DNA from: Candidatus Latescibacterota bacterium
GTDB taxonomy: Bacteria > Krumholzibacteriota > Krumholzibacteriia > WVZY01 > JAKEHA01
Assembly (NCBI GenBank): GCA_963707635.1
Contig: OY970173.1
Location: 2,592,001-2,656,000, forward strand
DNA length: 64,000 bases
Direction of reading: 5' to 3'
Below, in pieces: positions 34,583 through 52,600 of this stretch (position 1 is its first letter; every line of letters begins with the position of its first letter). The notes beneath the pieces were generated by a model that saw only the letters and a program-made list of their open reading frames with translations, ran no database searches and was not told the DNA's origin. A program made the position numbers and the translations under genes.

Positions 34583-34609
34583 TCAGGCACGATCACGGGT
34601 GCCACGGGA

Positions 34610-34696
34610 CGGTGTGTGCTCCCTCCGCCGCCGTCCTCCCGCGCACAATGGTTGAAATGCGCGACTGCGGATTGGCGTCAGAGGGAGCACACACCG
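34610..34696 (-). repeat. Structured intergenic repeat, family 1 copy A
   Basis: 16-bp terminal inverted repeat CGGTGTGTGCTCCCTC/GAGGGAGCACACACCG; core nearly identical to 52511-52600 in reverse orientation. Confidence 0.8.
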
Positions 34697-34707
34697 CCCA
34701 ACGAGAC

Positions 34708-34803
34708 TCCGGGCGATATGTCGGGCGGAGTGCGATTTCGCGAGGCGCGCTATAGACCTGGCGCGCGAAGCGCATGAGCGCGGAGCCCGATATATCGCCC
34801 GGA
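34708..34803 (+). repeat. Structured intergenic repeat, family 1 copy B
   Basis: 19-bp terminal stem with one G-T pair; core similar to the reverse complement of 48233-48329. Confidence 0.8.
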
Positions 34804-34823
34804 CTCCCCCATTGTGCAACGCG

Positions 34824-36272
34824 CTACCGCAGGCTGATCCAGACCGATTTCTTTTCCAGGTACATGTCGAGGGCGTCGGCGCCGAGTTCGCGGCCGAACC
34901 CGCTTTCGCGGTAGCCGCCGAAGGGCGAGGCGGGGTGATAGACGTTGTAGGTGTTCACCCACACCGTCCCGGCTCGAAGCGCCGCCGCGACGCGGTGCGC
35001 GCGCGCGGCGTCCTGGGTCCACACCCCGGAGGCCAGACCGTAGCAGCTGTCGTTCGCCATCTTGACCGCGTCCGCTTCGGTGTCGAACGGAATCACACAC
35101 AGCACCGGGCCGAAGATCTCATCGCGCGCCACCGTCATCTGGTTGGTCACGCCGGTCAGGACGGTCGGCTCGAGGTAGTATCCGCGCCCGCCGACCGCGG
35201 CCGCGCGGCCGCCGGCGGCGAGTTTCGCGCCTTCGCGCACCCCGGCCTCGACGCAGGCCAGGATTCCATCGCGGTGCGACTTCGACACCTGGGGTCCCAG
35301 GCGGGTCTTGTCGTCGAGCGGGTCACCGGGAGTGTAACGCGCCATCTTGGTCTTCACGAGCTCCACGAACTCGTCGTGGACGGCGCGTTCCACGAACAAC
35401 CGCGAGCCCGCCGCGCAGACCTCACCCTTGTTGTAGAAGATGCCGCTGCACGCGCCCTGCGCCGCCGCGTCCAGTTTCGCGTCTGCGAAAACGATGTTCG
35501 GGGACTTGCCTCCCAGTTCCAGCGAGACGCGCTTGATCGTTCCGGCCGCGGAACGCATCACGGTGCGGCCGACCTCCGTCGACCCGGTGAAGGCGACCTT
35601 GTCCACGCCGCGCGCGTCGAGCAGCGCCTGGCCGGCGATCGAGCCGCGGCCGGGCACCACGTTCACCACGCCGGGCGGCACCCCGGCCTCAAGGCACAGC
35701 GCCCCGAGCTTGAGAGCCGTCAGCGGCGTGATCTCGGAAGGCTTGATGACCGCGACACACCCGGCCGCGAGCGCCGGGGCCAGCTTCCACACCGTGAGCA
35801 GCAGGGGGAAGTTCCAGGGCACGATCATGCCGACGACGCCGACCGGCTCGCGCAGCGTGTAGGTGAGGAAACCGGGGATGGTCGGGATGCTCTCGCCGGA
35901 AAGCTTGTCGGCCCAGCCCGCGTAGTAGCGCAGCAGGCTGACCACGAAAGGCCCCTCGATCTTTTCCGACTCGAAGATCGGCTTGCCTTGATTGAGCGTT
36001 TCCAGCCGCGCGACTTCCGCGGCGTCGCGCTCGAAGAGGTCGGCGAGCTTCCACAGGATCTTCGCGCGCGTGCCGCCGTCGAGCTTGCTCCACGCCCCGG
36101 AGTCGAAAGCGGCCCGCGCCGAGGCGACGGCGGCTTCGACGTCCTTCACGGTCGCGCAGGCGACGTCGCACAGCTTCTCTTCGGTCGCGGGGTTGACGAG
36201 CGTGGACACGGCGCGGTCGCTCGCGTCCACCCACTCGCCATTGATCAGCAGCTTGGTGTGCTTGATGTCCAT
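34824..36272 (-). CDS. NAD(P)-dependent aldehyde dehydrogenase (candidate 3,4-dehydroadipyl-CoA semialdehyde dehydrogenase by context)
   Basis: PWNFP, FTGSTEVG, LELGGKSP, catalytic GEVCAAGSR, EIFGPV. Confidence 0.9.
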   Translation of the reverse strand: MDIKHTKLLINGEWVDASDRAVSTLVNPATEEKLCDVACATVKDVEAAVASARAAFDSGAWSKLDGGTRAKILWKLADLFERDAAEVARLETLNQGKPIFESEKIEGPFVVSLLRYYAGWADKLSGESIPTIPGFLTYTLREPVGVVGMIVPWNFPLLLTVWKLAPALAAGCVAVIKPSEITPLTALKLGALCLEAGVPPGVVNVVPGRGSIAGQALLDARGVDKVAFTGSTEVGRTVMRSAAGTIKRVSLELGGKSPNIVFADAKLDAAAQGACSGIFYNKGEVCAAGSRLFVERAVHDEFVELVKTKMARYTPGDPLDDKTRLGPQVSKSHRDGILACVEAGVREGAKLAAGGRAAAVGGRGYYLEPTVLTGVTNQMTVARDEIFGPVLCVIPFDTEADAVKMANDSCYGLASGVWTQDAARAHRVAAALRAGTVWVNTYNVYHPASPFGGYRESGFGRELGADALDMYLEKKSVWISLR

Positions 36273-36304
36273 TGGATTCCTTCTGTAGCGTTCTCGCGGT
36301 CAAC

Positions 36305-36408
36305 CACGCGGGTCCTGTCGCCGACAGCCCGGTGCGGCTCGCTTCGTCCGCGCCTTCGCACTAGACTCGCTCGCCGCCCGGGCGCCCGTCGGCGCCACCC
36401 GCTCGTGC
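36305..36408 (-). repeat. Structured motif, family 2 copy 1 (between boxB and the ALDH gene)
   Basis: Minus strand GCGGGT-GG-CGCCGAC...GTCGGCG-ACAGG-ACCCGC; shared with 39517-39595. Confidence 0.7.
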
Positions 36409-36419
36409 TCGATGAAGCA

Positions 36420-37838
36420 CTACAACCGCACGTACTCGAAGTCGAGCGGGCGGCCGTGAATACCGTGCTGCGGGGGAGCGATCCAGTTCGCGAACTTGCC
36501 GCGCTCGGTGACCAGGAACTGCACGCTCTTCACATAGTCGCGGTCCGCGCGCGTGGGCAGGAACTCGTCGCGGCGCGATTCGAACTCGTCTTTGGAGATC
36601 ATGTTCCCGTGCGGGTCGAAGTGCGCCCTGCTGTAGGTCCCGACCAGGCGATGGAAGCGGACAGACGGGAGCAGGATGCGCAGCCGGCTGTCCTCCTGCT
36701 CCAGGATCTTGTTCCAGCGCGCGACCGCCCGCTCGCAATCCTCGATGTAGGCATCGCGGAGCACCGCGTTCATGGCGCGACGCATCGGTATTTCCACTTC
36801 GTGCAGCCGCCGTTGCTCCTCGTCGACACCCAGGTAGCCGTAGTTACCCTCGCGCCCGACTGGATCCGGATAGAGCTTTCGGTTCGCCTCGTTGAAGCGC
36901 CCCTTGAGGCCGTGCGCGAAGTAATTCGCCGCGTTGCTCGAATCCTCGTTGCCGAACAGATCGAGCGACACCGAAAACCAGTAGTTGATGTACTTCTGGA
37001 TGATGTCGAGCGGAATGCCGCCGTAGGGCCGCACGTCTTCGCTCTCGTTCTCCCGCATCAGCTGGGCGGTGCGCCGGATGGTCCGCGCCAGGCCGGTTTC
37101 GCCCACGAAGAGGTGGTGCGCCTCCTCGGTGAGCATGAAGCGGGTGGTTCGCGAGAGCGGCGTGAAGGCGCTCTCGGCGAGCGAACCGAGCTGGTATTTT
37201 CCGTCGCGGTCGGTGTAGGTCGCGAAGCAGAAGAAGTCGAGCCAGTCGTCGATTGGGTCGTTGAAGGTGGACAGGAGCCGCGGCGAATCCGCGTCCCCCG
37301 ACCGGCGTTCGAGCATCTCCTCGGCCTCGTCGCGACCGTCCTTGCCGAAATACGAATGGAGGAGGTAGACCATCGCCCACAGATGGCGGGCCTCTTCGAC
37401 GTTCACCTGGAAGAGGTTGCGCATGTCGTATTGCGACGGGGCCGACAGCGCCAGCCGGCGCTGCTGCTCCACCGAACCGGGTTCGGTGTCGCCCTGCGTG
37501 ACGATCAGCCGGCGCAGTTCATTTCTATGCTCGCCGGGCACGTCCTCCCAGCATTCCGCTCCGATGTAGTCGCCGAAGTGGATCTGGCGTTCGCCCTTGA
37601 CCGGTGCCAGGAATATTCCCCAGCGGTACTCGGGCATACGCACGTAGTCGTACACCGCCCAGCCGGACGAATCGACGCTCACTGCGGTGCGCAGGTAGAT
37701 CTCGTTCTCCTGGTGGACGACCGGCCCCTGGTCCCGCCACCATTCCATGAACTGCGGGTGCCAGCGCTCGAGCGCGCGCAGCAGCTTCTGGTTCTCCTTG
37801 AGATTGACGTTGTTGGGTATGAGTTCTTTGTAGTCCAT
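36420..37838 (-). CDS. boxB: Benzoyl-CoA 2,3-epoxidase, oxygenase (di-iron) subunit
   Basis: IPNNVNL, YLRTAVSV, YRWGIFLAP, TQGDTEPGSVEQQ, VEEARHLWAM, DRDGKYQL, EEAHH. Confidence 0.92.
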   Translation of the reverse strand: MDYKELIPNNVNLKENQKLLRALERWHPQFMEWWRDQGPVVHQENEIYLRTAVSVDSSGWAVYDYVRMPEYRWGIFLAPVKGERQIHFGDYIGAECWEDVPGEHRNELRRLIVTQGDTEPGSVEQQRRLALSAPSQYDMRNLFQVNVEEARHLWAMVYLLHSYFGKDGRDEAEEMLERRSGDADSPRLLSTFNDPIDDWLDFFCFATYTDRDGKYQLGSLAESAFTPLSRTTRFMLTEEAHHLFVGETGLARTIRRTAQLMRENESEDVRPYGGIPLDIIQKYINYWFSVSLDLFGNEDSSNAANYFAHGLKGRFNEANRKLYPDPVGREGNYGYLGVDEEQRRLHEVEIPMRRAMNAVLRDAYIEDCERAVARWNKILEQEDSRLRILLPSVRFHRLVGTYSRAHFDPHGNMISKDEFESRRDEFLPTRADRDYVKSVQFLVTERGKFANWIAPPQHGIHGRPLDFEYVRL

Positions 37839-37839
37839 C

Positions 37840-39489
37840 CTAGATCCTGCTCCAGTCGAACTCCGGTGAGTGCGGCTTGCCGTACGATGTGAGCGCGCCG
37901 CGCTCCCCCACCGCGTTGGGCCGCGTGAATATCCAGTTCTGCCACGCGGAGAGCCGGGCGTAAATCCGGCTCTCCATCGACTCGGGACCCACGAAACGGA
38001 GGTTGGCTTCCATCCCGGTCAGCGCGTCCGGCGAGAGCGAGCGGCGCTCTTCGACCGCCATGCGGATCCCATCCTCCCAATCGATGTCGTCCAGTGCTTC
38101 GGTGACCAGACCCAGCTCCGCGGCCTCTGCGGGAGGGATCGGCTCGCCCCGCCGTTCGAGCGCGCGCGCCACCGATTGCGGCGAACCGTAAAACCGGTTC
38201 TCGAGCCGGGAGAGTCCGTGCGCCATCGGACAGCGCCCCGCGTTGTGCGAGCTGAGCGCGATCGCGTTGTCGCTCTCCGCTTCGTCGAGCATGAACGATC
38301 GGTCGCACGCCAGCGCGATTTCGAAGAGGCTCCCGGCGAAACACGAACCGGGCACGATTATAGCGAAGAAGGTGCGGGCCGTCACGTCGATCATCTTGAG
38401 GGTTCGCGCCTGCTGCAGCAACACCTCGCGCACGAACCAGTGGTCCGCGCGCCCGGAGAGCGCTTCGTCCAGGGCGAGCACGTGCTCCCGCTTCCCGACC
38501 GTCTCGAAGGTGACCAGCCCGATCTGCGGATGGTTGAAGCGCAGCTCCAGTATCGCGTGGCGGAGCTCGCGCCACATGCGCAGCGCATACCACGACGCGC
38601 CGAGCCCCGCGGGGTCCGCCGGAATGCTCGCGTCGGCCGCCTCCGGGCCGCGGACGGTGATTTTCGCCGAGCGCTCCGCCGGCCGGATCTCGACGGTCAC
38701 GAACCGGTAGCGGAGCGAATCACCGTCGGTCTCGGGTTCGACGGACTCGAGCGCCACGCCTTTGGCGTCGTTACCCTTGCCCGCCAGCTCGACCAGCCGC
38801 GAACGCATCGCCTCCGCGTAGACCGACTTCGGGTGCACGAAGTCCACCAGCCCCCATTCCAGCGCCTTCTTCGCCTTCGCGCCCTCGGCGATGGTGCAGA
38901 ACGCGTCGGCCCGGTCGCGCCGGACCCGGCGCTTGTCGACCAGACGGGTAAGCCCGCCGGTTCCGGGCAGCACGCCCAGCAGCGGAACTTCGGGCAGGCT
39001 GACCGCGGAGCTGCGGTCGTCGACGAGATGGATCTCGTCGCACGCGAGCGCCAGCTCGTAACCGCCGCCCGCCGCGGCGCCGTTCAAGGAGGCCACGTAC
39101 TTCTGCCGGCTCTTCGCGGTCGCTTCCTCCATGTTGATGCGGGTCTCGTTGGTAAATTTGCAGAAATTCACTTTGTGGGTGTGCGTCGAGGTCCCGAGCA
39201 TGAAGATATTCGCGCCGGCGCAGAAGATCTTCTCGTTCATGCTTTCGATGCACACGACCGAGACTTCGGGGTGCTCGAAGCGCAGGCGTGTGACCGCGTC
39301 GTCGAGCTCGATGTCCACGGCGAGGTCGTACGAGTTCATCTTGAGCTTGTAGCCGGGGCGCAGCCCCTCGTCTTCCTGGACGTTCATCTTGAGCCACGCG
39401 ATGGGCCCCTCGACGACGAGTTTCCAGTGCTTGTAGGTGTCGGGATGCGCGGCGAAGCGAATCCGTTCCATGCGCGTGTTGGTTTCCAT
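37840..39489 (-). CDS. boxC: 2,3-epoxybenzoyl-CoA dihydrolase (crotonase fold)
   Basis: YKHWKL, NSYDLAVDIEL.DA..RLRFEHPEV, HKVNFCKFTNETR, AGGGYELALACD, RLSAWQNWIF.RPNAVGE.GAL. Confidence 0.92.
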   Translation of the reverse strand: METNTRMERIRFAAHPDTYKHWKLVVEGPIAWLKMNVQEDEGLRPGYKLKMNSYDLAVDIELDDAVTRLRFEHPEVSVVCIESMNEKIFCAGANIFMLGTSTHTHKVNFCKFTNETRINMEEATAKSRQKYVASLNGAAAGGGYELALACDEIHLVDDRSSAVSLPEVPLLGVLPGTGGLTRLVDKRRVRRDRADAFCTIAEGAKAKKALEWGLVDFVHPKSVYAEAMRSRLVELAGKGNDAKGVALESVEPETDGDSLRYRFVTVEIRPAERSAKITVRGPEAADASIPADPAGLGASWYALRMWRELRHAILELRFNHPQIGLVTFETVGKREHVLALDEALSGRADHWFVREVLLQQARTLKMIDVTARTFFAIIVPGSCFAGSLFEIALACDRSFMLDEAESDNAIALSSHNAGRCPMAHGLSRLENRFYGSPQSVARALERRGEPIPPAEAAELGLVTEALDDIDWEDGIRMAVEERRSLSPDALTGMEANLRFVGPESMESRIYARLSAWQNWIFTRPNAVGERGALTSYGKPHSPEFDWSRI

Positions 39490-39516
39490 TTCTTGTTCTC
39501 CCGTTCAATCGTCGTC

Positions 39517-39595
39517 GCACCTGCGCGGGTCCTGTCGCTGACCCACCCCGCGGCATCCGCCGCGGGGGCCCCGTGTCAGCGCCACCCGCTGGTGC
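39517..39595 (-). repeat. Structured motif, family 2 copy 2 (upstream of boxC)
   Basis: Minus strand GCGGGT-GG-CGCTGAC...GTCAGCG-ACAGG-ACCCGC. Confidence 0.7.
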
Positions 39596-39617
39596 CTGAC
39601 CGACGCGCGGCTGACTG

Positions 39618-40649
39618 CTACTTCACCTTGATCACGATCTTGCCCAGCGCGCGGCGTGCTTCCATCGCGCGGTGCGCCTCGGCCGTGTCCTTCAACTCGT
39701 ACACCGCTCCCACCACGGCTTTCATCCTGCCCGCAAGTATCAGTTTCAGCACCGCCATGAGCTCGCTGCGCGAGCCCATGGTCGAGCCGATCACCTCGAG
39801 CTGGCGGTAGAAGATTTGACGGAGGTCCTCTTCGGGATTATACCCGGTGGTGGCGCCGCACGTCACCAGCCGCCCGCCGCGCGAGAGGCTTTGCAGGCTC
39901 TTGACCCACGTGTCCTTCCCCACGTAGTCGACCACCATGTCGACCCCGCGGCGATTCGTCTCCTGGCGGATCCGCTTCACGACATCCTCGCGCGAGTAGT
40001 CGATGAGCACGTCGGCGCCGAGGCCGCGGCACAGCGCCAGCTTCTCCGGGCTGCTCGCTGCCGCGAACACGCGCGCGCCGGCCACTTTCGCGATCTGGAT
40101 GCACGCGATCCCGACCCCGGCGGAGGCGCCGAGCACCAGGACGTCTTCGCCGGCGCGCAGCCTGCCGCGCGTGATCAGCATCCTCCACGCCGTGACGAAC
40201 ACGAGCGGGATCGACGCCGCGTCCTCGAACGACATCGACCCGGGAATCGGAATCGCGTTCGCGGCCGGGATCACGATCCGTTCGCAGCAGGTGCCGCTGC
40301 GCGTCTCGCCGATCAGTTGGTACGACACGCACAAGGTTCCGTCGCCGCGCTGGCAGAACTCGCACGCCCCGCACGAGATCGACGGGTTGATCAGCACGCG
40401 GTCGCCGACTTTGACCGCATCCACGCCGTCCCCGACCTCGTGCACCACCCCGGCCGCGTCGCAACCGGGGATATGCGGCAGCACGGTCTTGACCCCGGGC
40501 AGTCCGCGTCGCAAGAAAAGGTCGATGTGGTTGAGCGATGCCGCGTGGACGTCGATCTTCACCGTGCCGGGGAGCGTGTCCGGTTCGGGCCTCGTCCCCA
40601 GGGTGAGAACCTCGGGGCCGCCGTGCTTCTCGTAGTAGATCGCTTTCAC
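39618..40649 (-). CDS. Zinc-binding MDR dehydrogenase / quinone-oxidoreductase-like protein
   Basis: GTG start VKAIYYEKHGGPEVL; structural Zn motif CGACEFC..G...LC; LGASAGVG; GKIVIKV. Confidence 0.88.
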   Translation of the reverse strand: MKAIYYEKHGGPEVLTLGTRPEPDTLPGTVKIDVHAASLNHIDLFLRRGLPGVKTVLPHIPGCDAAGVVHEVGDGVDAVKVGDRVLINPSISCGACEFCQRGDGTLCVSYQLIGETRSGTCCERIVIPAANAIPIPGSMSFEDAASIPLVFVTAWRMLITRGRLRAGEDVLVLGASAGVGIACIQIAKVAGARVFAAASSPEKLALCRGLGADVLIDYSREDVVKRIRQETNRRGVDMVVDYVGKDTWVKSLQSLSRGGRLVTCGATTGYNPEEDLRQIFYRQLEVIGSTMGSRSELMAVLKLILAGRMKAVVGAVYELKDTAEAHRAMEARRALGKIVIKVK

Positions 40650-40666
40650 GCTTGGCGTCGTGCGCG

Positions 40667-41083
40667 TCAGGGTGCGTCGCGGAACGCTTCGAAGCGCCGG
40701 CGCCACGCCGGCGGGATGGGCACGGGCGCGAAGTTGTCGTCGATGGCGACCGTCTTGATGGTGGCACGCGCGCTGGTCGCCCCGTCGGGCAGGCGTACGG
40801 CGGTGTAGCGCAGGGTCAGCGAGGTGCGGCCGATCTCGGCCACTTCCAGCTCGACGCGAACGCGCTCGCCGTAGCGCAGCGGCTTGAGGAACTCGGTCTC
40901 GATCCGCACGCTGGGAAAGCCGATGCGGTCGCCGTTCACCAGCTCGGGGTACGAAACCCCGAGCGCCTGGGCGAACCACTCCTCGAATGCCTGGTGGAAA
41001 TAGTGAAAGAACCGCGGGTAGTACACGACGTGCGCGTGGTCGATTTCACCGAAGCGCACCGGGAGCTCGGTCGCGAACTTCAT
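40667..41083 (-). CDS. Acyl-CoA thioesterase (4HBT/YbgC-like hotdog fold)
   Basis: VRFGEIDHAHVVYYPRFFHYF, FLKPLRYG. Confidence 0.85.
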   Translation of the reverse strand: MKFATELPVRFGEIDHAHVVYYPRFFHYFHQAFEEWFAQALGVSYPELVNGDRIGFPSVRIETEFLKPLRYGERVRVELEVAEIGRTSLTLRYTAVRLPDGATSARATIKTVAIDDNFAPVPIPPAWRRRFEAFRDAP

Positions 41084-41415
41084 CGACCGAAGGCCCCGTC
41101 CGCCCGCGCGGCCAGAATGAAGTCGCTCTCGGTGAGGCCGTCGATCTTGTGGGTCCAGATCGTGAGCGTCACGCGGCCCCACCCGAGATGCACGTCCGGG
41201 TGGTGCCCTTCGGCCTCCGCGATCTCACCCACGCGGTTGGTGAAGTCCAGCGCCTGCCGGAAATCGTCAAAGGCGTACGACTTCTCCAGGTGGTGTTCGT
41301 CGACCACCTTCCAGTCGCCGCCGAGTTTGGCCGCCACGGCGCGCAGCGCCTCGCCCTTCAGCGGCGGGACATCCCCCCGGCACGGAACGCAATGCTTCTT
41401 CGCGAGCTCCGACAT
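41080..41415 (-). CDS. phhB: Pterin-4-alpha-carbinolamine dehydratase
   Basis: C.PC N-terminus, AEAEGHHPDV, THKIDGLTESDFILAA. Confidence 0.9.
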   Translation of the reverse strand: MSELAKKHCVPCRGDVPPLKGEALRAVAAKLGGDWKVVDEHHLEKSYAFDDFRQALDFTNRVGEIAEAEGHHPDVHLGWGRVTLTIWTHKIDGLTESDFILAARADGAFGR

Positions 41416-41434
41416 GGCATGACCGCAAGGCGGT

Positions 41435-42046
41435 CTACTTCGCCGCCTTCAGCCGGCGCGCGACTTCGTCCCAGTTGATCACGTTCCAGAAGGCGGTGAC
41501 GTAATCCGGCCGGCGATTCTGGTACTTGAGATAGTAGGCGTGCTCCCAGACGTCGAGACCCAGGATCGGCGTCAGCCCCTCGGAGAGCGGCGAGTCCTGA
41601 TTGGCGGTCGACGTCACCACGAGCGCGCCGTCCTTCTTCACCGAGAGCCAGGCCCAGCCGCTGCCGAAGCGCGTTTTCGCGGCGGTCTCGAACTGGGTCT
41701 TGAACGCGTCGAAGGCGCCGAACGCCTTCTCCATCGCACTGGCGAGGTCCCCCGCGGGCTTGCCGCCGCCACCTGGCTTCATGACGGTCCAGAACAGTTC
41801 GTGGTTCGCGTGACCCCCGCCGTGGTTTCGAATCACGGTGCGGATGTCTTCCGGGATCGAGGACAGCTCGCGGAGCAAGTCGCCCACCGATTTCGTGGCC
41901 AGCTCCGGGTGTTTCTCGAGCGCGGCGTTTGCGTTGTCGATATAGGTCTGATGGTGCTTGGTGTAATGGATCTCCATCGTGCGCGCGTCGATGTGCGGCT
42001 CCAACGCGTCGTATGCGTACGGGAGTGCGGGTAGCTTGAACGCCAT
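41435..42046 (-). CDS. sodA: Superoxide dismutase (Mn/Fe family, Mn-like)
   Basis: [35 protein letters not shown]. Confidence 0.95.
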
Positions 42047-42171
42047 GACGACTCCTTCGTTCGTTCGTGTGATCGGTGCTTCCGAAGCCGGCCGGGAGCC
42101 GGCGGGTGCCAGCAGGTCGCGCTCGCGTCGCCGGGCATGTTCCCAACGGCGGTTCGCACGGGGTCGGTGGA

Positions 42172-42200
42172 ATGATACGCACGGGCACTCGGCCCGTCAA
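42172..42200 (-). promoter_or_regulatory. Putative sigma70 promoter for the sod-box operon
   Basis: Minus strand TTGACG-N17-TATCAT. Confidence 0.6.
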
Positions 42201-42266
42201 AGCCAAACCAGAAGCGCCGGTTCCAGGTCACCGGCGCTTTCGCAGGCCAACGAACCGATCGTTTCG

Positions 42267-42596
42267 CTAGACGGTGAACGACTCGCCGCAGCCGCAGGTG
42301 GCCTTGGCATTCGGGTTGGAGAAGACGAACCCCTTGCCGTTCAAGCCCGTGGTGTAGTCGAGGACGAGCCCGTGGAGGAAGAGCTTGCTCTTCTTGTCGA
42401 CAACGATGCGCACGTCGCCATTCTGGATGATCATGTCCGATTCCGCGGCCGTCTCATCGATCACCAGGTTATACATCAATCCCGAGCATCCCCCACCCTT
42501 CACCGAGACGCGCAAAAACGCATTCGCCGGGGTCTTGCTCTCCGCGGCGATACAATCCCGGATCGCCTGTACGGCGCGTTCCGTCACGGTAATCAT
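42267..42596 (-). CDS. iscA: HesB/IscA Fe-S cluster assembly accessory protein
   Basis: GGGCSG, LDY, NPNAKATCGCGESF. Confidence 0.9.
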   Translation of the reverse strand: MITVTERAVQAIRDCIAAESKTPANAFLRVSVKGGGCSGLMYNLVIDETAAESDMIIQNGDVRIVVDKKSKLFLHGLVLDYTTGLNGKGFVFSNPNAKATCGCGESFTV

Positions 42597-42708
42597 TCGA
42601 TCCAATCCTTCCTGTGCAGGCCCAGGGCGTTGCCGGCGCTGCGGTTACGCAGCAAATCCCGGGCCGGCCACGATCTCCCCGGTGATCCAAGTATAATGAA
42701 CGGACCAA

Positions 42709-43572
42709 ATGGCCGTCAAACCCTTCACACTGGCCGCCCTCCTTCTCGCGTTCGCGGGAGCGGCATGGGCCGGGCCCTGGACCCGGGCGCGGGGAACCAG
42801 TTATTCCAAATTCACGGCCTCCTATCTCTATACCACAAGCGAGTACGACGCGAACGGCGAGCAGGTGCCGATTCTCACCAGCAACCCCCTCGTGCAATCG
42901 GCGGCCTATCGAGACGTCTCCTTGTCGAGCTACGTCGAGTACGGGATCCGCGACCAGCTCACCCTGGTGGCTTCACTCCCCTTTAGGATCCTCACGTCGC
43001 GACGGACGGAACTCTCGAGCGACGCGACCATCGAGCGCGAGGTCGACGTCACCAACGCCGGGCTGGCCGACCTCTGGGTGGGACTGCGGCGCGCGCTCCG
43101 GCGCGGGCGCTATCCGGTCGCGATCGACGCCGGGATCAAAGCCCCGCTGGGTTACGACCGCACCCCGGACAACGGCGGGCCGGCGCTCGGGACCGGATAC
43201 GCGGACGCGGAGTTCGCGCTGTCCGCCGGCTACGGGGCTCGCCATGCGTACGGGGTCATCCGCGCGGGGTATCGCGTGTACGGCGGTGATCTCGACAACG
43301 CCGCGGGGCTGGCGGCCGAAATGGGCGCTCATCGCGACCCCGTATTCGTCAAGCTCGAGCTCGACGCGTGGCGTTCCTCCGGCGAGATCCTCCCCCTGGA
43401 CGTGAGTTCTACCACCGTCGTCCCCAACCAGGACGTGACCACGCTGGTAGCGGCGCTCGGCATGCGGGCGAGCGAGCAGGTCTCTCTGGCTCTCGAGACC
43501 TATTACGTGCTGGCCGGGAAGAACGTCGCGACTGGAACTACCGTCGCGCTGACGTTGATCCTGGCCCGGTGA
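42709..43572 (+). CDS. Exported hypothetical protein, probable beta-barrel
   Basis: Signal peptide AWA; YVEYG..DQLT..ASLPF; amphipathic strands; TATAAT 11 nt before ATG. Confidence 0.65.
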   Translation: MAVKPFTLAALLLAFAGAAWAGPWTRARGTSYSKFTASYLYTTSEYDANGEQVPILTSNPLVQSAAYRDVSLSSYVEYGIRDQLTLVASLPFRILTSRRTELSSDATIEREVDVTNAGLADLWVGLRRALRRGRYPVAIDAGIKAPLGYDRTPDNGGPALGTGYADAEFALSAGYGARHAYGVIRAGYRVYGGDLDNAAGLAAEMGAHRDPVFVKLELDAWRSSGEILPLDVSSTTVVPNQDVTTLVAALGMRASEQVSLALETYYVLAGKNVATGTTVALTLILAR

Positions 43573-43656
43573 ATTCCACCAAATACCGGGCGAACATGCG
43601 CCGGCGTGCGGTATAATGGGGCCATCCCCAACCGGTACGTCAAAGGGAGTACAACC

Positions 43657-44613
43657 ATGATCCGTTGGCTGACAGTGGCCGTGGCCGTCGGGCTGTTCGG
43701 GGCTCCCGCCCTGGCAAGTCCGCGCCTGCTGGTGGTTTCCAAAAAGAGCCACTCGCTGCAGGCGTTTGACGCCGTTTCGTATGCGAAGCAGTTCGAGATC
43801 GACGTTTCCGGCGAACCCCACGTGGTCGTCACCTCGGCGGACGGGAAGTTCGCATACGTGGCGGACTTTGGCGGAACCACCAACCTTCTATCGATCATCG
43901 ATCTCGATCAGAAGCTCGTCACCGGCACGGTCAGCTTCAAGCCCTCCCTCAGAGCCCACGGCCTGGCGGTTACGCGCGATGGTTCGCGGCTGTTCGCTAC
44001 GTGCGAGGCCTCGCGTGCGGTGGCCGAGGTGGACCTGCCGGGGCGCAAGGTGGCCCGCAAGTTCAAACTCAACTTCGACAACTGCCACCTACTCGCGCTC
44101 TCGCCCGACGAAACCACCCTGTTCGTGACGAGCGCCTTCGACGGCAACGTGACGATGTTCAACACCACGACGGGAGAAGTGACCTACGCGCTCAAGACGG
44201 GAAAGGGCGCCGAGGGGGTGGACGTGTCGCCCGACGGGCGTCAGCTTTGGGTGGTGAACCGGACCTACCAGAACATCAGTGTGATCGACATCCCGACCCA
44301 CCATGTCGTGGAAAACGTGCTTTGCGAGGGCAGCCCGATGCGCGTCGAGCTTTCTCCGGACGGGAAGACGGCGGCCGTCACGTGCTCGTCGTCCGGCGAC
44401 CTCGTTTTCATCGATACCGCGACACGCAAGGAGGCCGCGCGCATCCCGGCCGGGATCTACCCCTCCGAGATCGTCTTCGATCAGGACGGCTCGCGCTGTT
44501 TCGTCACCGACGCGCGCACCGCGGAAGTCATCGTGGTCGACCGGGCCGCCCGCAAGGTCTTGCAGCGATTCTCTGTCGGCCCCGACCCGGAGGGCATCGC
44601 CTTCGTCCCCTGA
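43657..44613 (+). CDS. YVTN/YncE-like beta-propeller protein
   Basis: Signal peptide; repeated S(P/A)DG motifs; ends VGPDPEGIAFVP; GGGAG RBS. Confidence 0.85.
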   Translation: MIRWLTVAVAVGLFGAPALASPRLLVVSKKSHSLQAFDAVSYAKQFEIDVSGEPHVVVTSADGKFAYVADFGGTTNLLSIIDLDQKLVTGTVSFKPSLRAHGLAVTRDGSRLFATCEASRAVAEVDLPGRKVARKFKLNFDNCHLLALSPDETTLFVTSAFDGNVTMFNTTTGEVTYALKTGKGAEGVDVSPDGRQLWVVNRTYQNISVIDIPTHHVVENVLCEGSPMRVELSPDGKTAAVTCSSSGDLVFIDTATRKEAARIPAGIYPSEIVFDQDGSRCFVTDARTAEVIVVDRAARKVLQRFSVGPDPEGIAFVP

Positions 44614-44618
44614 CCCGG

Positions 44619-45365
44619 TTACCGCTTCTCGAACGACGCGTGCTCGTCCGCGGACGAGACGCGGATTCCGGTCACATCCACCTTCCCGCGCCCCGTCGCC
44701 AGTTTGACGGCACCGAACGAGGTCCAGTTCGTCCACGGGAGTGTGAAGCGCGGAGCCGGGTCGGAGGCGAGCTTGTAGTAGCACCATTGGCTCACCAGCC
44801 CGCTCTCACGGTCCACGAACACGTCGTACTTGTTGTCGGGCGTGTCACCGACGCCCTTGAAGGTCAGCACCAGCATGTCGGCGGCGCGGCCGTCCTCGGT
44901 CGCCTTTTCGCCCGCGTAGCGCAGCGTGACGCCCGAATCCTTGAGCTTGTACGGCATCAACAGCCAGTACGAATCGTTGATCCAGATCGAGGTCGCGTCC
45001 TTGAGGATCGCCGCCAGCGCCCCGGGGTTCGTCACCTCGCTTCCCTTGCTCCACGCGCGACCGACGCCCGTGGTCACGTTCATGACGACGGTGAGCGTGT
45101 CGGCGTCCAGCCGGTACTCGCCAGTCCACTTGTTCCACAGGTGTGTCCGCCCGAAGATGGTCCACCCGATCGTCTGCACCGCGTCCCAGTTCGCGCGCCC
45201 GCCCATCATTTCCATGGTGTGATCGGCGATCTGCATCGCCCGCTGATCCGAGCCGGCCTCGTCGAACCCCTGTGCCGGGGGATTCGACCCGGCGAACGCC
45301 GTCGCGGCGATCGCCCACACCAAGAGCGCTGCGGCGCCGTCCGTTCGCACTCTGATACGCTTCAT
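44619..45365 (-). CDS. Exported conserved hypothetical protein
   Basis: Signal peptide; MGGRANWD, WINDSYWLLMPYKLKD.GV.L, F.GVGDTP.NKY. Confidence 0.7.
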   Translation of the reverse strand: MKRIRVRTDGAAALLVWAIAATAFAGSNPPAQGFDEAGSDQRAMQIADHTMEMMGGRANWDAVQTIGWTIFGRTHLWNKWTGEYRLDADTLTVVMNVTTGVGRAWSKGSEVTNPGALAAILKDATSIWINDSYWLLMPYKLKDSGVTLRYAGEKATEDGRAADMLVLTFKGVGDTPDNKYDVFVDRESGLVSQWCYYKLASDPAPRFTLPWTNWTSFGAVKLATGRGKVDVTGIRVSSADEHASFEKR

Positions 45366-45369
45366 GTCG

Positions 45370-46131
45370 TTACTCCTTCCGGGTCACCGTTCCGTCGTCC
45401 GCCACCTCGAAACGCGAGAGCGGCTCCGTGAGCGCCACCGCGTTGGGCCAGGTTTCGACCTCGCGCACGACCTGCTCTCGCTCCACGGTGCGGATGTGCA
45501 CCGCGAAACTCACCCGCGGCCGAAATCCGCGCTCGGCCAGCCGCTTTCCGAACGGGTAGGTGAGAAACCAGAACGGAACCACCCCAACGTCGATTGCGGC
45601 GTCGATCACGCCCGCGGATCGCAGCGACTTCTCGGCGATGATGCCGTCTCCCAGGTGCAGCACCGTTCGGCCGTCGAGCGTCACCAGTAGCCCCAGGTGC
45701 TCGACGTCGCCGTAGTTCACTTTGCCGTGACTCAATCCAAAGCCGTCGACGCGGATACCCCCCACGTCCACACCGCCGACCACGCCCTCGGTCGCGGGCA
45801 GCGTGTGCATCCGCCCCGCGAAGGCGCCGCCGGTGGCCGCGCGCAATGCGGCCGCCGCCTGCGAGGTCGACACGAACACGGCGCGCGGGTTCGCACCCAG
45901 ATGCGTCGCCACTGCACCCGCGTCGAAATGGTCCGCGTGGTGGTGCGTCGCCAGAATCGCGTCGACCGCGTCGAACGGCGGTCGGGCCCGGCGCAGCGCG
46001 TCGAGCGCGACCGCATCCGGCATTCCAAACGGCGTCGCCTCGTCCGAGTACAGCCCGTCGATCAGGACGCTTCCCGCGCGGGAGCGCACCAGCACGCCTT
46101 CGCAGCCGAGGTAGGTGAGCTCCAGCGGCAT
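45370..46131 (-). CDS. MBL-fold metallo-hydrolase
   Basis: THHHADHFD and LHLGDG motifs. Confidence 0.85.
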   Translation of the reverse strand: MPLELTYLGCEGVLVRSRAGSVLIDGLYSDEATPFGMPDAVALDALRRARPPFDAVDAILATHHHADHFDAGAVATHLGANPRAVFVSTSQAAAALRAATGGAFAGRMHTLPATEGVVGGVDVGGIRVDGFGLSHGKVNYGDVEHLGLLVTLDGRTVLHLGDGIIAEKSLRSAGVIDAAIDVGVVPFWFLTYPFGKRLAERGFRPRVSFAVHIRTVEREQVVREVETWPNAVALTEPLSRFEVADDGTVTRKE

Positions 46132-46251
46132 TGCCGAATCCTAGCACAAACGACCGGGACGGATGGGCGTGGCACTGCCCGTCGTAACCCGGGACCGAAC
46201 CTGATGCTCCGCGCGCCCGATTGGGTTGCACCCCACCTCCTACGGCAGTAA

Positions 46252-48216
<1,965 letters not shown>

Positions 48217-48232
48217 CGTTGCCGCTCGGCCG

Positions 48233-48329
48233 GGCAGTCGATATATCGGACTCCGCGCTCATGCGCTCGCGCGCACATGTGGGAATGCGCGACTCGCGAA
48301 ATCGCGCTTCGCCCGATATATCGACTGCC
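48233..48329 (-). repeat. Structured intergenic repeat, family 1 copy C
   Basis: 19-bp terminal stem GGCAGTCGATATATCGG(G/A)C; core matches copy B; lies between convergent thiC and HEAT genes. Confidence 0.8.
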
Positions 48330-48347
48330 TACGATGGGGGTCCTATA

Positions 48348-49949
48348 CTACTTCCCTAGCAGCTCGCGCAGCGCCTTCTTCGCCGCGGGAGTTCCGATCT
48401 CGCCCAGCGCCTGCACCGCGGCCCGGCGCGTGTCGCGGTTCGAATCGGTGCGCGCCACGTCCGAGAGAGTGGGGACGGCGTCGTCGCTTTCCGACTCACC
48501 CAGGGCCCACACGATCGTGCGGCGCGCGTCCGGGTCCTTCGTCCCCTTGAGCATCTCGACCAGCGACGCCACCGACTCCTCCCCGCCATTGTCGAGCGTC
48601 GCAAACAGCGCCGCCTTGCGCACCTCTTCGAAGGGCGACTTGCGGTACACCTCGAGAAAGAACGAGGCGTCGTCGTCGTCCAGCACCTCCATCAGGCCGT
48701 AGACGGCGGCCTTCGCCAGTTCCTCGTTCTTCTGATCGAGCGCGGCGGCCTTCATCGACTCGATCGCCGCCGGTCCGCCGTGTTCGGCCAGCGCGTAGAA
48801 CGCGGCCTTCTTGACCTCGGGGTCGTCCGAACTCTTCACGATTTCGTTGAGCACGGGCACCACCGAGGGGTCGTCGACCTCGGCGAGCGCGTATACCGCG
48901 GCGCGGCGCAGCTCCTCTGCGTCATCGCCGGGTTCCTTGCCCAGCGCGATCTGCTTCAGGGTCGGCACGATGTTTTCGTTGTCCCGCTCGACCAGCGCGT
49001 ACAGGGCCGCCTTCCTGACCTCGATCGACTTCGTCGTCTGGAGCACGTGTTGCAGCGCCTTGGTCGCCGCGGGGTCGTCGACCTCCGAGAGCGCGTAGGT
49101 GGCCGCCTTCTGCATCTCCTCGTCGGTGTCGGTCATGGCCACGTCGACCAGGATCTTGGTCACGTCCGGGCGGTCGACTTCAGCGATGGCGTAGAGAATG
49201 TGCCGGCGAATGTCGGGGTCCTTCTCCGTCTTCATGATGGCGACCATGGTGTCGATCACCCGCTCGTCGTCGGGGTACTCGGAGATGGCGTAGATCGCAT
49301 GGCGGCGCACGTCGGGATCCGGATCCGTCCGGGCGGCGTCGATCATTATGTCCAGCACCCGCGGGTCGTCCACGTCCGAGAGCATGTAGACGGCGTGCTT
49401 GCGCACGTCGGCGTTCTTCGAGTTCTTGAGCAATGAGGAAACCGTGTCGAGAATCTGGTCGTTGTCTTCGCTGTCCATCAACGCGTACAGCACTGCCATG
49501 GTGAACTCGGGATCCTCGTCGTCCCCCGCCGGCACCTTGAACGACTCGAGCGCGGCTTTCCCGCGCGGGTCGCCGGCATCCGCCATGCGCTTCGCCAGCT
49601 TGACGTACTCGTTGCGCGCGTCGTCCGACCACTTGCCGTCCGGATACCTCTTCAGAAAACTCGCATAACAGTCGAACGATTCCGCGTAGTCGCGCGTCGA
49701 ACGCTCGAGCGCATAGCACTTCCAGAAGTCCGCGGCCTCGACCCACTTGCTCTTCGGGTAGGACTTCAGGAACTGCTGCGCGGCCTCGTACGCCTGCTGA
49801 TAGCGCTCGTCGTAGATGAGGTCCTGCAGATCCTCGTACGCCTGCTCGGTGTGGTCCTTCTTCTCCTCCGCGCGCGCCACGGGCGCCAGAAGATGAATCG
49901 CCAGGACCACCGCCGCAGTCGCCAGAATGCCAGTTGCACGTCGCTTCAT
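48348..49949 (-). CDS. Exported HEAT-repeat protein with N-terminal TPR-like region
   Basis: Signal peptide; FLKSYPKSKW; repeated D.(E/D)(V/I)R..A.(Y/W)AL.E units. Confidence 0.85.
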   Translation of the reverse strand: MKRRATGILATAAVVLAIHLLAPVARAEEKKDHTEQAYEDLQDLIYDERYQQAYEAAQQFLKSYPKSKWVEAADFWKCYALERSTRDYAESFDCYASFLKRYPDGKWSDDARNEYVKLAKRMADAGDPRGKAALESFKVPAGDDEDPEFTMAVLYALMDSEDNDQILDTVSSLLKNSKNADVRKHAVYMLSDVDDPRVLDIMIDAARTDPDPDVRRHAIYAISEYPDDERVIDTMVAIMKTEKDPDIRRHILYAIAEVDRPDVTKILVDVAMTDTDEEMQKAATYALSEVDDPAATKALQHVLQTTKSIEVRKAALYALVERDNENIVPTLKQIALGKEPGDDAEELRRAAVYALAEVDDPSVVPVLNEIVKSSDDPEVKKAAFYALAEHGGPAAIESMKAAALDQKNEELAKAAVYGLMEVLDDDDASFFLEVYRKSPFEEVRKAALFATLDNGGEESVASLVEMLKGTKDPDARRTIVWALGESESDDAVPTLSDVARTDSNRDTRRAAVQALGEIGTPAAKKALRELLGK

Positions 49950-49960
49950 TCCTCTTCCTC

Positions 49961-50902
49961 CTAGTCGATGACGTCCGCCGTGGACGCCCGGGAGCCGGCG
50001 CTGCCGGACTCCCGCATCTGTTCCAGATTGATGCGCAGCAAGACGCCTTCCCGTTCGAGCCGGCCGCGAATCACATCCACGGACTCGAGGTCCGCGTCCG
50101 CTTCCAGGTGCGCGATCTCGCGGAGAATCAGTTCGAGCTGGTCGACCAATTCGAGCAGCCGGCGGTCGTCGCGCGAGAGCGTCTTGCGCACCTCCCGCCC
50201 CTCGACGAGGAGCGCCCCCGCACGCGTGCGGCCGCTTCCCACCTCGGCGGCGTAGTTCTCGCCCGGGTCCGCGTTCAACAGCGCCAGCAGCACCACCTGC
50301 GAACGCTCGATGTACCGCAGCGCCGCGTCGTTGTTCGACGCGGCCACCACCGGGGCCGGCGCGGTGCCCCCCGGGTTGGTCTGTTCCCCGGCGGGAGCGT
50401 CGATCGCGGGCAGTGTTTCGCCGGTTGCGCGGACCGCGGGCGTGGTGTCGGCGCGATCGTGGACACCGGCGTCGGCGGGTGCGCGCGACCCGTCCGCGAG
50501 ATCCCCCGTGGTCGATTTTCCCGCGGGCGGCGACGGGCTCGGCGCCAGCGCCGAACGTCCGATCCACACCCCCGCGGCGAGAATGAGAACGGCGGCAGCC
50601 ACACGGAATCCCCACGACCCGAAAAGCTGCCGCCGTTCCGGCCTGGACGCGTCCCGGGCGCCCGAGTCCGCGCCCGCCAGGCGCCGCTCGAGCCGTTCCC
50701 AGTACGTGTCCCAGTAGTCCGCGCCCGGATCCGGGCGCCGGCGCGCGCTCATCGCGTCGAGCGTCACGCGCATCTCTTCGACGAGTTTCGCGCAGGCGGC
50801 GCATTCGCGCACGTGCGCGTCAAAGGCAAGCTGGCGCTCGCCGTCCAGCTCCCCGTAGAGTGATTCCACCATCCAGTCTCGATAGCGATTGCACGCGCTC
50901 AT
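49961..50902 (-). CDS. Zinc-finger (zf-HC2) anti-sigma factor, single TM
   Basis: HVRECAAC (HxxxCxxC); TM VAAAVLILAAGVWIG; adjacent to the ECF sigma gene. Confidence 0.85.
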   Translation of the reverse strand: MSACNRYRDWMVESLYGELDGERQLAFDAHVRECAACAKLVEEMRVTLDAMSARRRPDPGADYWDTYWERLERRLAGADSGARDASRPERRQLFGSWGFRVAAAVLILAAGVWIGRSALAPSPSPPAGKSTTGDLADGSRAPADAGVHDRADTTPAVRATGETLPAIDAPAGEQTNPGGTAPAPVVAASNNDAALRYIERSQVVLLALLNADPGENYAAEVGSGRTRAGALLVEGREVRKTLSRDDRRLLELVDQLELILREIAHLEADADLESVDVIRGRLEREGVLLRINLEQMRESGSAGSRASTADVID

Positions 50903-51492
50903 GCCAGATCACCCACTTCATCGCGGTAGTGCGCGAGGCGGTCGCGCAGCTTGCGGATCGAGCGAAACAGCAGACTCTTCACGGTGCCCTCCGCGATCGC
51001 GAGCGACGATGAAATCTCCCGGATCGGCATGTCGTGGTAGTGGCGCAGAACGAACACGCTGCGCTCCTGCGCCGAGAGCACGTCCATCGCGCGCTCGACG
51101 TCGGCCTTGAACCGCGCCCGCCCCGCGAGCCGGTCGGGGTGCGGCATGGCGCCGTCCACGAGCTCGCGCGGGGCCTCCTCGCCGCCGTCCTCGCTCGACG
51201 GAGCGAAGTCGATGCTCACGAGTGTGACCGGCTTCCTGCGTTTTGAATCGATGTGTGCATTCATGGTGATCCGGTACAGCCAGCTGGCCAGTTTGGCGTC
51301 GGCGCGAAAACTCCCGATCGCGCGATACGCCTTGATGAAAACTTCCTGCGACAGATCCTCCGCGTCGTGGTGGTTTCCCGACAGGTCGTAGGCCAGCGCG
51401 TAGACGTCGCGCTTGTGACCCTCGACCATCTCCCGGAACGCCGCCGCGTCTCCGCGCTGCAGGCGCTCCACCAGCATCCGCTCGTCCAGCAC
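50899..51492 (-). CDS. ECF RNA polymerase sigma factor
   Basis: DAEDLSQEVFIKAY, SWLYRI, GTVKSLLFR; start codon uncertain. Confidence 0.92.
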   Translation of the reverse strand: MLDERMLVERLQRGDAAAFREMVEGHKRDVYALAYDLSGNHHDAEDLSQEVFIKAYRAIGSFRADAKLASWLYRITMNAHIDSKRRKPVTLVSIDFAPSSEDGGEEAPRELVDGAMPHPDRLAGRARFKADVERAMDVLSAQERSVFVLRHYHDMPIREISSSLAIAEGTVKSLLFRSIRKLRDRLAHYRDEVGDLA

Positions 51493-51508
51493 CGGGAACA
51501 GCGGCGAG

Positions 51509-52336
51509 CTAGCGCTCCCCGTCCTCACCGCGTATCCGAATGGTGCCGTTGACCGCGTCGACGTTGATGCTCGCGCCGCCGTCTCCGATGGTTCCCCGCA
51601 GCGACGCGCCGACGATGTCGTGCTTGGACACGGTGAGCCCCAGGTCGTTCACGATGGAGCCGTTGACCGTGCTGGCCCGCACGCGTGCGCCCCCCTTCTT
51701 CGGAAGGGTCACGTCGACGGTGCCGTTGACCGTCTGCAGCTTGATCGACGCCGATGCATCCAGCTGCTCGAACGCCACCTCGAGGGTTCCGTTTACGGTC
51801 GAGAGATCGACGTCTCCGGAAAGCTCCGACGCGGTCAGTGCGCCGTTGACGCACGACGCCTGCACGCGGCCGGAAAGTCCGTCGACGTCGAGGTCGCCGT
51901 TTACGAGCGAGACCTCGTCGATGCGGATGGTGCGCGGCACCTTGATCTCGAAGTCGACGGTGGCGCCTTCGCCGTCGTAGTCGTGGTGCCAATTCGTCTC
52001 CCTCGTGAACTCGGCGCGGATGCTGACGTGATCGCCCTCGGCTTCCATCTGGACCTCGAGGTCGTCCAGCCTGGACTGCGACGTGGCACGCTTCGTCGCC
52101 TCGATGCTCACCTCGTTGCGCTCCCAGGTGCTGATGCGGACATCGCCGTTGATGTTCTCGAGGCTCAGGCGGCCCTCCGACTTGAGCGGAAAGGTGTCGC
52201 TCAGCTTCTCGGTGTACGCGTATGAGTTCTTGTACTCCTTGCCGGATTGCTTCCGGTCCTTTCCCTGCAACGGGGCGGCGACCAGGACGACGGCCACCAC
52301 CACCAGCGACAGCATGATTGTTCGCGCGCGAAGCAT
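51509..52336 (-). CDS. DUF4097 beta-strand repeat (adhesin-like) exported protein
   Basis: Repeated (T/S)VNG motifs; signal peptide; GAGGAGG RBS. Confidence 0.8.
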   Translation of the reverse strand: MLRARTIMLSLVVVAVVLVAAPLQGKDRKQSGKEYKNSYAYTEKLSDTFPLKSEGRLSLENINGDVRISTWERNEVSIEATKRATSQSRLDDLEVQMEAEGDHVSIRAEFTRETNWHHDYDGEGATVDFEIKVPRTIRIDEVSLVNGDLDVDGLSGRVQASCVNGALTASELSGDVDLSTVNGTLEVAFEQLDASASIKLQTVNGTVDVTLPKKGGARVRASTVNGSIVNDLGLTVSKHDIVGASLRGTIGDGGASINVDAVNGTIRIRGEDGER

Positions 52337-52386
52337 GTCGTTCCTCCTCGTCGGTTGGGGAATCAGTTCAATGCGTATAGGTGTGA

Positions 52387-52414
52387 GACGGATTCGGGCG
52401 GCGTAAAGTTTACA
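52387..52414 (-). promoter_or_regulatory. Putative ECF-sigma (autoregulatory) promoter
   Basis: Minus strand TGTAAAC-N17-CGTC upstream of the DUF4097-sigma operon. Confidence 0.55.
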
Positions 52415-52457
52415 CCCGGGCCGGGAAAGGCGCCGAAGTTCTCGGCCGGCCAGCGGT

Positions 52458-52486
52458 TTGACAGGGAGGCACCCGTCGGCTAGTCT
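52458..52486 (+). promoter_or_regulatory. Putative sigma70 promoter for the M14 peptidase gene
   Basis: TTGACA-N17-TAGTCT. Confidence 0.6.
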
Positions 52487-52510
52487 CCGCGACAACCTGC
52501 GCGCCCTGTT

Positions 52511-52600
52511 GGCGGGATGCACTCCCTCAAGACGCCAATCCGCAGTCGCGCATATCAACGTGCGCGCGGGAGGACGGCGGCGGAGGGAGTGCATCCCGCC
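52511..52600 (+). repeat. Structured intergenic repeat, family 1 copy D
   Basis: 18-bp perfect terminal stem GGCGGGATGCACTCCCTC/GAGGGAGTGCATCCCGCC; core matches copy A. Confidence 0.8.

Follow-up and report, generated by a model that had tools for sequence, protein, structure and literature searches.

Dispersed intergenic hairpin repeats with a conserved core and variable outer stems in a genome of the class Krumholzibacteriia

How small bacterial hairpin repeats spread without a repetitive extragenic palindrome (REP)-associated tyrosine transposase (RAYT) or an insertion sequence (IS) is an open question. The REP and REPIN systems, which are accompanied by a RAYT, and dimers resembling bacterial interspersed mosaic elements are described in two accounts as intergenic hairpins near coding ends that undergo compensatory stem changes, occur as paired copies, form lineage-specific subfamilies and persist for long periods while their sites turn over; in REPINs the ends are conserved and the spacer varies (PMC3116915, PMC3733652). 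CGTC-tagged REPs, which are 20-40 bp long and carry a terminal tag, apparently spread without a dedicated transposase (PMC3733652). [quoted passage not shown] Here, we analyze a family of intergenic hairpin repeats of ~95 nt in Candidatus Latescibacterota bacterium (class Krumholzibacteriia), which has four copies in a 64,000-nucleotide stretch of the genome (the window; assembly GCA_963707635.1, contig OY970173.1, positions 2,592,001 to 2,656,000, forward strand).

The hairpin repeats are a real, undescribed family with an inverted REPIN architecture, in which the centre is conserved and the ends vary. We propose, with a probability of roughly 0.55, that they are dispersed elements gained and lost at many gene ends, which likely move as a folded single strand, probably DNA, are recognized at their core by an enzyme not found here, and are partly retained by the host. 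Mobility is deduced from the presence and absence of copies among relatives and from the young subfamilies. The family is a clean case for the question above, given that it combines a closed genome, young subfamilies and orthologous sites that are filled or empty by the dozen with no match to six of the common mobile-enzyme families; the host is uncultured, and as a kind the family is close to the familiar REP and ERIC repeats. Our literature search turned up no description of it; subscription journals and the supplementary tables of motif surveys lay outside that search and could hold one.

How does the family compare with the described systems? The initial annotation considered a REP/REPIN-like or other nonautonomous mobile element, which holds for behavior but not for membership. 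The repeats are multi-copy extragenic hairpins with compensatory changes, as REPs are. However, GTAG lies near the end of 10 of the 73 copies and CGTC of 4, the terminal arms are not conserved (57% alike in subfamily E versus 50% when shuffled), no RAYT was found in any of the 17 genomes of the genus and no target-site duplication is apparent. In comparison with the short CGTC-tagged REPs, the present repeats are long, nested and untagged. They share size, location and self-folding with MITEs but differ in that the ends vary, with no conserved terminal inverted repeat, no target-site duplication in 73 copies (whose ends are approximate) and no related IS found in the genome, where the IS-type profiles searched were DDE_Tnp_1, rve and IS110. 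Integron attC sites have conserved outer R boxes, a variable loop and cassette arrays; they resemble the element proposed here in being single-stranded DNA hairpins whose structure is recognized, and in having asymmetric strands and highly variable stems. In the hairpin family, by contrast, the centre is fixed, the variable ends are G/C-rich with no conserved R boxes, and copies lie scattered among housekeeping genes rather than in an array beside an integrase. In the comparison with Rfam 15 recommended by the initial annotation, no family reaches its gathering threshold in the window; the only matches are sub-threshold, mostly to microRNA hairpin models, and fall at eight other loci.

Conserved core and free outer stem

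The host genome is a closed single contig of 3.20 Mb (66% G+C, 96% complete). Iterated profile searches returned 74 matches, namely 23 of the A/D type, 20 of the B/C type and 31 of the E type, that is, 73 full copies and one half copy (of the E type) in three subfamilies. A covariance model trained on 58 copies recovers 73 in the host genome. These numbers lie far beyond chance GC-rich hairpins, the outcome that the initial annotation had set against its proposal. The four-copy element of that annotation is real, but its members are only 4 of the 73 copies, and the E subfamily with its nearly copy-unique stems had been missed.

On the strand picked by the initial annotation, each copy has a ~20-bp outer stem, which leads inward to a purine-rich G·A loop (GA/GA, GGA/GGA or GAA/GGA) and a helix of 3-4 bp. 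Next come an internal loop that GA flanks on each strand and a helix of 3 bp, and beyond another purine loop the hairpin closes with a stem of the GCGCG type whose loop varies. The ~55-nt core, with its G·A internal loops rich in purines, has a conserved sequence. The outer stem is free in sequence but keeps its pairing and length: the mean length is 19.6-20.4 pairs depending on the subfamily, and pairing drops to background 20-22 bases outward of the core, where the ends are merely G/C-rich. In the largest subfamily, the outer stem is nearly unique to each copy and retains its pairing, and across 14 E1 copies the cores are 93% alike and the arms 57% (50% when shuffled). The inner arms are common to the A/D copies (81% alike) and to the B/C copies (87% alike), indicating that arms travel with the element.

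One strand's fold is favored irrespective of the direction of transcription or replication. The strand defined by the core is more stable than its reverse in 64 of 73 copies. Covariation scores 0.43 in a first alignment and 0.64 in 41 copies from relatives, versus 0.15 when shuffled, and none of 500 shuffles reaches either value; the second alignment is model-fitted, and the kinship of the copies inflates both scores. When mismatches in the stems are counted symmetrically, there is an excess of G·T over A·C of 60 to 10 in the host genome (22 to 7 in E copies alone) and by 59 to 14 in relatives, and therefore the fold of one strand is selected. Where both sides of a stem pair have changed, the change is usually a transition (27 of 42 in A/D, tabulated for 21 of its 23 copies, and 21 of 25 in B/C), and G·T intermediates are present at those positions of the stem where A-T/G-C swaps occur. 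The initial annotation had inferred selection on a fold rather than a sequence, which the covariation, the excess of G·T and the G·T intermediates support; the covariance model and the scans of the genome and its relatives that it advised find further copies. The family displays strand-specific fold selection that is independent of transcription direction.

Genomic sites and their turnover

Genes were called with our own dicodon model, so that individual boundaries are possibly off. The 73 copies occupy 63 loci, of which 39 are co-directional, 19 convergent and 5 divergent gaps. Relative to 1022 background gaps of at least 100 nt (679 co-directional, 85 convergent and 258 divergent), convergent gaps are enriched (19/63 vs 85/1022, p = 1.7e-6) and divergent gaps are depleted (5/63 vs 258/1022, p = 1.2e-3), p-values that are overstated because the copies are not independent. 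The median distance to the facing stop codon is ~10 nt, with 53 of 58 distances between -7 and 41 nt, and many occupied gaps have <25 nt on either side of the element. Ten loci hold pairs, all ten head-to-head with a spacing of 1-12 nt. Single copies in co-directional gaps lie in sense orientation in 12 cases and in antisense in 20 (p = 0.22), and no replichore bias was found in the host genome. The neighboring genes are functionally unrelated, ranging from ribosomal proteins to peptidases.

The model detects copies in 15 of 16 other genomes of the genus and in 2 of 6 other genomes of the family. In a sample of the class, copies occur in 6 of the 9 genomes that represent a second family and in 3 of the 77 from the seven other families. 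One 17-base core motif occurs exactly in 13 of 208 phylum genomes, belonging to two families, and those records with the core that carry names are titled Krumholzibacteriia or Latescibacteria. The subfamilies expanded lineage by lineage. No match to two patterns was found in viral contigs, nor any match in phage and plasmid collections; four metagenome pattern matches, which neither the profile nor the covariance models recognize, were dismissed as chance.

From relatives, 100 copies were fetched, and 67 of them map between adjacent genes of the host genome. There, 34 sites are empty (18 of them gaps of at most 32 nt), a member of the family is present at 26 and an unrelated repeat at 7. Since only 2.3% of gaps are occupied in the host genome, a sharing of 26/67 is far above expectation, and some copies are old, some sites are favored, or both. 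At 24 shared single-copy sites, the orientation is the same in 16 and opposite in 8. Cores have an identity of 0.88 inside a genome and of 0.77-0.79 across genomes, same-site pairs included, whereas stem identity amounts to 0.71 for copies at one site versus 0.63 otherwise and reaches at least 0.76 in 15 of 41 same-site pairs versus 9% of the background. Cores follow the genome, and stems partly follow the site. Sites within the ribosomal-protein operon are occupied in up to 5 genomes. Between a RecA-like (imuA-like) and a TfoX-N gene, two different species representatives have copies with no difference over 102 nt, and a further relative (G005) carries a tandem duplication of the copy at that site.

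Table 1. Coordinates of the repeats and genes discussed (plain positions refer to the window)
Feature	Position	Strand	Description
Copy A	34608-34698	-	A/D subfamily; ~20-pair outer stem, core with three short helices, apical loop
Copy B	34708-34803	+	B/C subfamily
Copy C	48233-48329	-	B/C subfamily
Copy D	52511-52600	+	A/D subfamily
DUF5916/CBM9 gene	32243-34582	+	copy A ~25 nt 3' of its stop
Aldehyde dehydrogenase gene	34824-36272	-	stop ~20 nt from end of copy B
thiC	46321-48216	+	flanks copy C
HEAT-repeat gene	stop 48348	-	flanks copy C
DUF4097 gene		-	flanks copy D
M14 peptidase gene	starts 52670	+	flanks copy D
Second repeat family	36307-36402	+	unrelated to copies A-D
Second repeat family	39524-39589	+	unrelated to copies A-D
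RecA-like/TfoX-N copy	L144:320-421 (G001)		identical over 102 nt to the next
RecA-like/TfoX-N copy	L120:1501-1602 (G012)
Long variants	L223:1501-2084 (G112)		three within 600 bases, two with extended apical arm
HNH gene	L126:1630-2775 (G002)	+	381 codons
HNH homologue	G000 C1 1260970-1262064	-	intact
HNH homologue	G000 C1 ~227700-228800	+	frameshifted
Hairpin	G000 C1 ~1262225-1262283	-	upstream of the intact HNH gene
DUF559 endonuclease gene	G000 C1 3198817-3199127	-	frameshifted, near contig end; followed by an unrelated long hairpin
Tyrosine recombinase fragments	G000 C1 ~774000-818000		repeated 3' fragments

The coordinates and strands of the four window copies (Table 1) had been given correctly, except that the stem of copy A reaches slightly further. 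The predicted fold of each copy is a single long nested hairpin (-62.6 to -67.7 kcal/mol, z -7.8 to -9.6), and none of 200 shuffles is equally stable; the outer stems differ but still pair, as the initial annotation stated. A single covariance model assigns 46-78 bits to the four copies, which are members of its training set, and finds no other match in the window. Copies A and B are the first and second members of a head-to-head pair, and the orthologous gap in one relative (G012) holds one copy of another subfamily. Copy C lies between convergent genes, and its site is empty in the 5 relatives that have both genes adjacent in the fetched locus. Copy D lies in one of the 5 divergent-gap loci, and three relatives (G002, G005 and G013) have no copy there. 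The comparison of orthologous gaps that the initial annotation called for thus yields empty sites at C and D in addition to the 34 above. One contig links copy C to the flank of a different B/C copy; the two copies have 35 identical bases in common, and the contig is probably an assembly chimera. Low-depth contigs aligned to the window contain no joint that skips any copy.

The window also contains two members of a second, unrelated repeat family. Its layout, with conserved ends and a variable inside, is conventional and REPIN-like; it has 68 motif matches genome-wide, a few of them doubtful, and likewise no RAYT was found for it in this genome. This family fills the 7 gaps in which relatives carry the hairpin family.

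Mobility, host function and template switching

How might a folded element without fixed ends move? A protein would bind the folded core, and the ends of the element would be set by the length of the stem rather than by its sequence. Insertion may favor, or be tolerated at, gaps just 3' of stop codons. Cores may be homogenized within a genome via re-copying or gene conversion, template switching may add to the turnover of stems and flip some copies, and some copies may be long retained by the host and act on mRNA ends. A more far-reaching version, which we regard as rather doubtful, is that the family represents a class of elements with neither a transposase gene of their own nor fixed ends, for which a housekeeping or novel enzyme reads the G·A-rich single-stranded DNA core and measures the ~20-bp stem to set the ends, with new cores overwriting old ones at sites already occupied. 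If true, such reading of a core and measuring of a stem would amount to a new way for DNA to move. The core, conserved across the order, can be used as bait for the binding protein.

Several observations, besides the non-independence of the copies, weigh against a mobile folded DNA. Profile searches of the host genome gave no match to Y1/RAYT, IS110, reverse transcriptase, TnpB, DDE_Tnp_1 or rve. Across relatives, many of whose genomes are incomplete, the Y1 profile PF01797 matched in none of 17 genus genomes and only weakly in 2 of the 36 genomes of the order, at two loci that are free of the element, and NF047646 exceeded its cut-off in none of the 36 order genomes. The low-depth contigs gave no instance of excision or of an empty site at strain level, and the empty sites could be losses, not gains. 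The 26/67 shared sites and the order-wide conservation of the core fit host selection equally well. The preference for G·T and the tandem G·A pairs are compatible with RNA and DNA alike. A weak hint toward a DNA fold comes from short variants without the apical stem, 12 of 17 of which are closed by GCA, GAA or GGA (22 pattern matches, 5 of them removed for want of an enclosing stem), given that the GNA triloop is extra-stable in DNA (PMC13037366). These loops stem from related genomes, however, and may be leftovers of an ancestral internal loop (GAA, GCA).

The main rival, which we consider unlikely but the strongest of the alternatives, is a host-selected mRNA element. The ~20-bp stem would be a processing or stabilizing site, such as an RNase III substrate, at transcript ends and in operons, the core would bind an RNA-binding protein, and new copies would arise rarely via recombination. 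The tight spacing to stop codons and the filling of ribosomal-protein operon sites in as many as five genomes agree with this explanation, as do the purine-rich 2x2 and 3x3 G·A loops, which are typical RNA motifs. For Correia elements, cleavage by RNase III is reported (PMC10969869). An mRNA element is nevertheless difficult to reconcile with the occurrence of both orientations (12:20) and the flips at 8 of 24 orthologous sites, although the reverse strand has no G·A loops. It also fits poorly with 34 of 67 sites being empty and with 7 others being filled by an unrelated repeat family.

Alternatively, the stems may be under no selection at all, an explanation that we regard as quite improbable. 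Replication template switching would keep the arms complementary and flip the centre, and the core would look conserved only because of recent copying or gene conversion. Template switching is able to create and repair perfect stems in one step (PMC8794818), and orientation flips do occur between homologous-looking arms. Moreover, among the double changes, 15 of 42 in the A/D stems and 4 of 25 in the B/C stems are transversions, for which no path through G·T exists, suggesting that template switching contributes as well. As the sole process, it is contradicted by the large excess of G·T over A·C relative to the core strand, even in the copy-unique E stems (22:7), by the majority of transitions with same-position G·T intermediates, by a stem length held near 20 bp and by a core common to two families of the order. 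The present counts lean toward two-step changes via G·T over one-step block changes.

It is very improbable that every copy is transcribed on its own as a small RNA, riboswitch or ribozyme. The strong conserved fold, the covariation and a core of defined length speak for such an RNA. On the other side stand the absence of an Rfam family, the functionally unrelated neighbors, the many gaps with less than 25 nt per side for a promoter and copy D, at which neither a promoter-like nor a terminator-like site was found; an intrinsic terminator (a short stem and small loop followed by a U tract) is not present there. One orthologous gap retains a terminator-like hairpin of its own next to whichever repeat is present. 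A cis-regulatory RNA would have a constant orientation and coherent neighbors, neither of which is observed. The structured-RNA option of the initial annotation is not established, given the free orientation and the copies that come and go between species.

Candidate enzymes and nearby observations

The statement in the initial annotation that the window encodes no nuclease or transposase holds for the scanned window proteins (19 open reading frames, then 12, which are not every one in the window). A RAYT or TnpA(Y1) gene flanked by copies, which had been suggested as a further sign, was not found in the genus (0/17) or at the two Y1 loci of the order, which are free of the element. A Y2 search was uninformative, with no signal in any control genome, and a scan for the HUH motif gave no candidate. 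A standalone GIY-YIG gene and a frameshifted DUF559 gene were rejected as the mover, with no copy beside either of them.

The copies have neither an evident target duplication nor arms that evidently derive from the target. The mean longest flanking repeat is 2.63 versus 2.64 in shuffled pairs (73 copies with approximate element ends), and the score between arms and empty sites is 15.3 versus 15.1, with 95 of 300 shuffles as high (34 sites, with low power at such divergence).

That a multi-copy DUF222-like/HNH endonuclease gene is the mover is hardly tenable: one such gene in a relative (G002) is directly flanked by two sister copies while the orthologous host site has no HNH gene, and the gene family is present in 23 of 23 family genomes, but the element occurs at only 1 of 30 HNH loci (0 of 8 further loci in G002), the query used found no such gene in the second family (0 of 4 genomes that bear the element), and the numbers mismatch (17 matches and 2 elements in G006; 1 match and 36 elements in G001), which rules it out as a general driver. 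The gene has a promoter-like leader of its own, occupies unrelated sites and gives 1-17 matches per family genome, and it is apparently mobile on its own. The hairpin upstream of its intact homologue has short motifs in common with the core and was not scored by the model. A separate region contains repeated 3' fragments of a tyrosine recombinase, which we take to resemble integron integrase ends, together with two other local repeat families.

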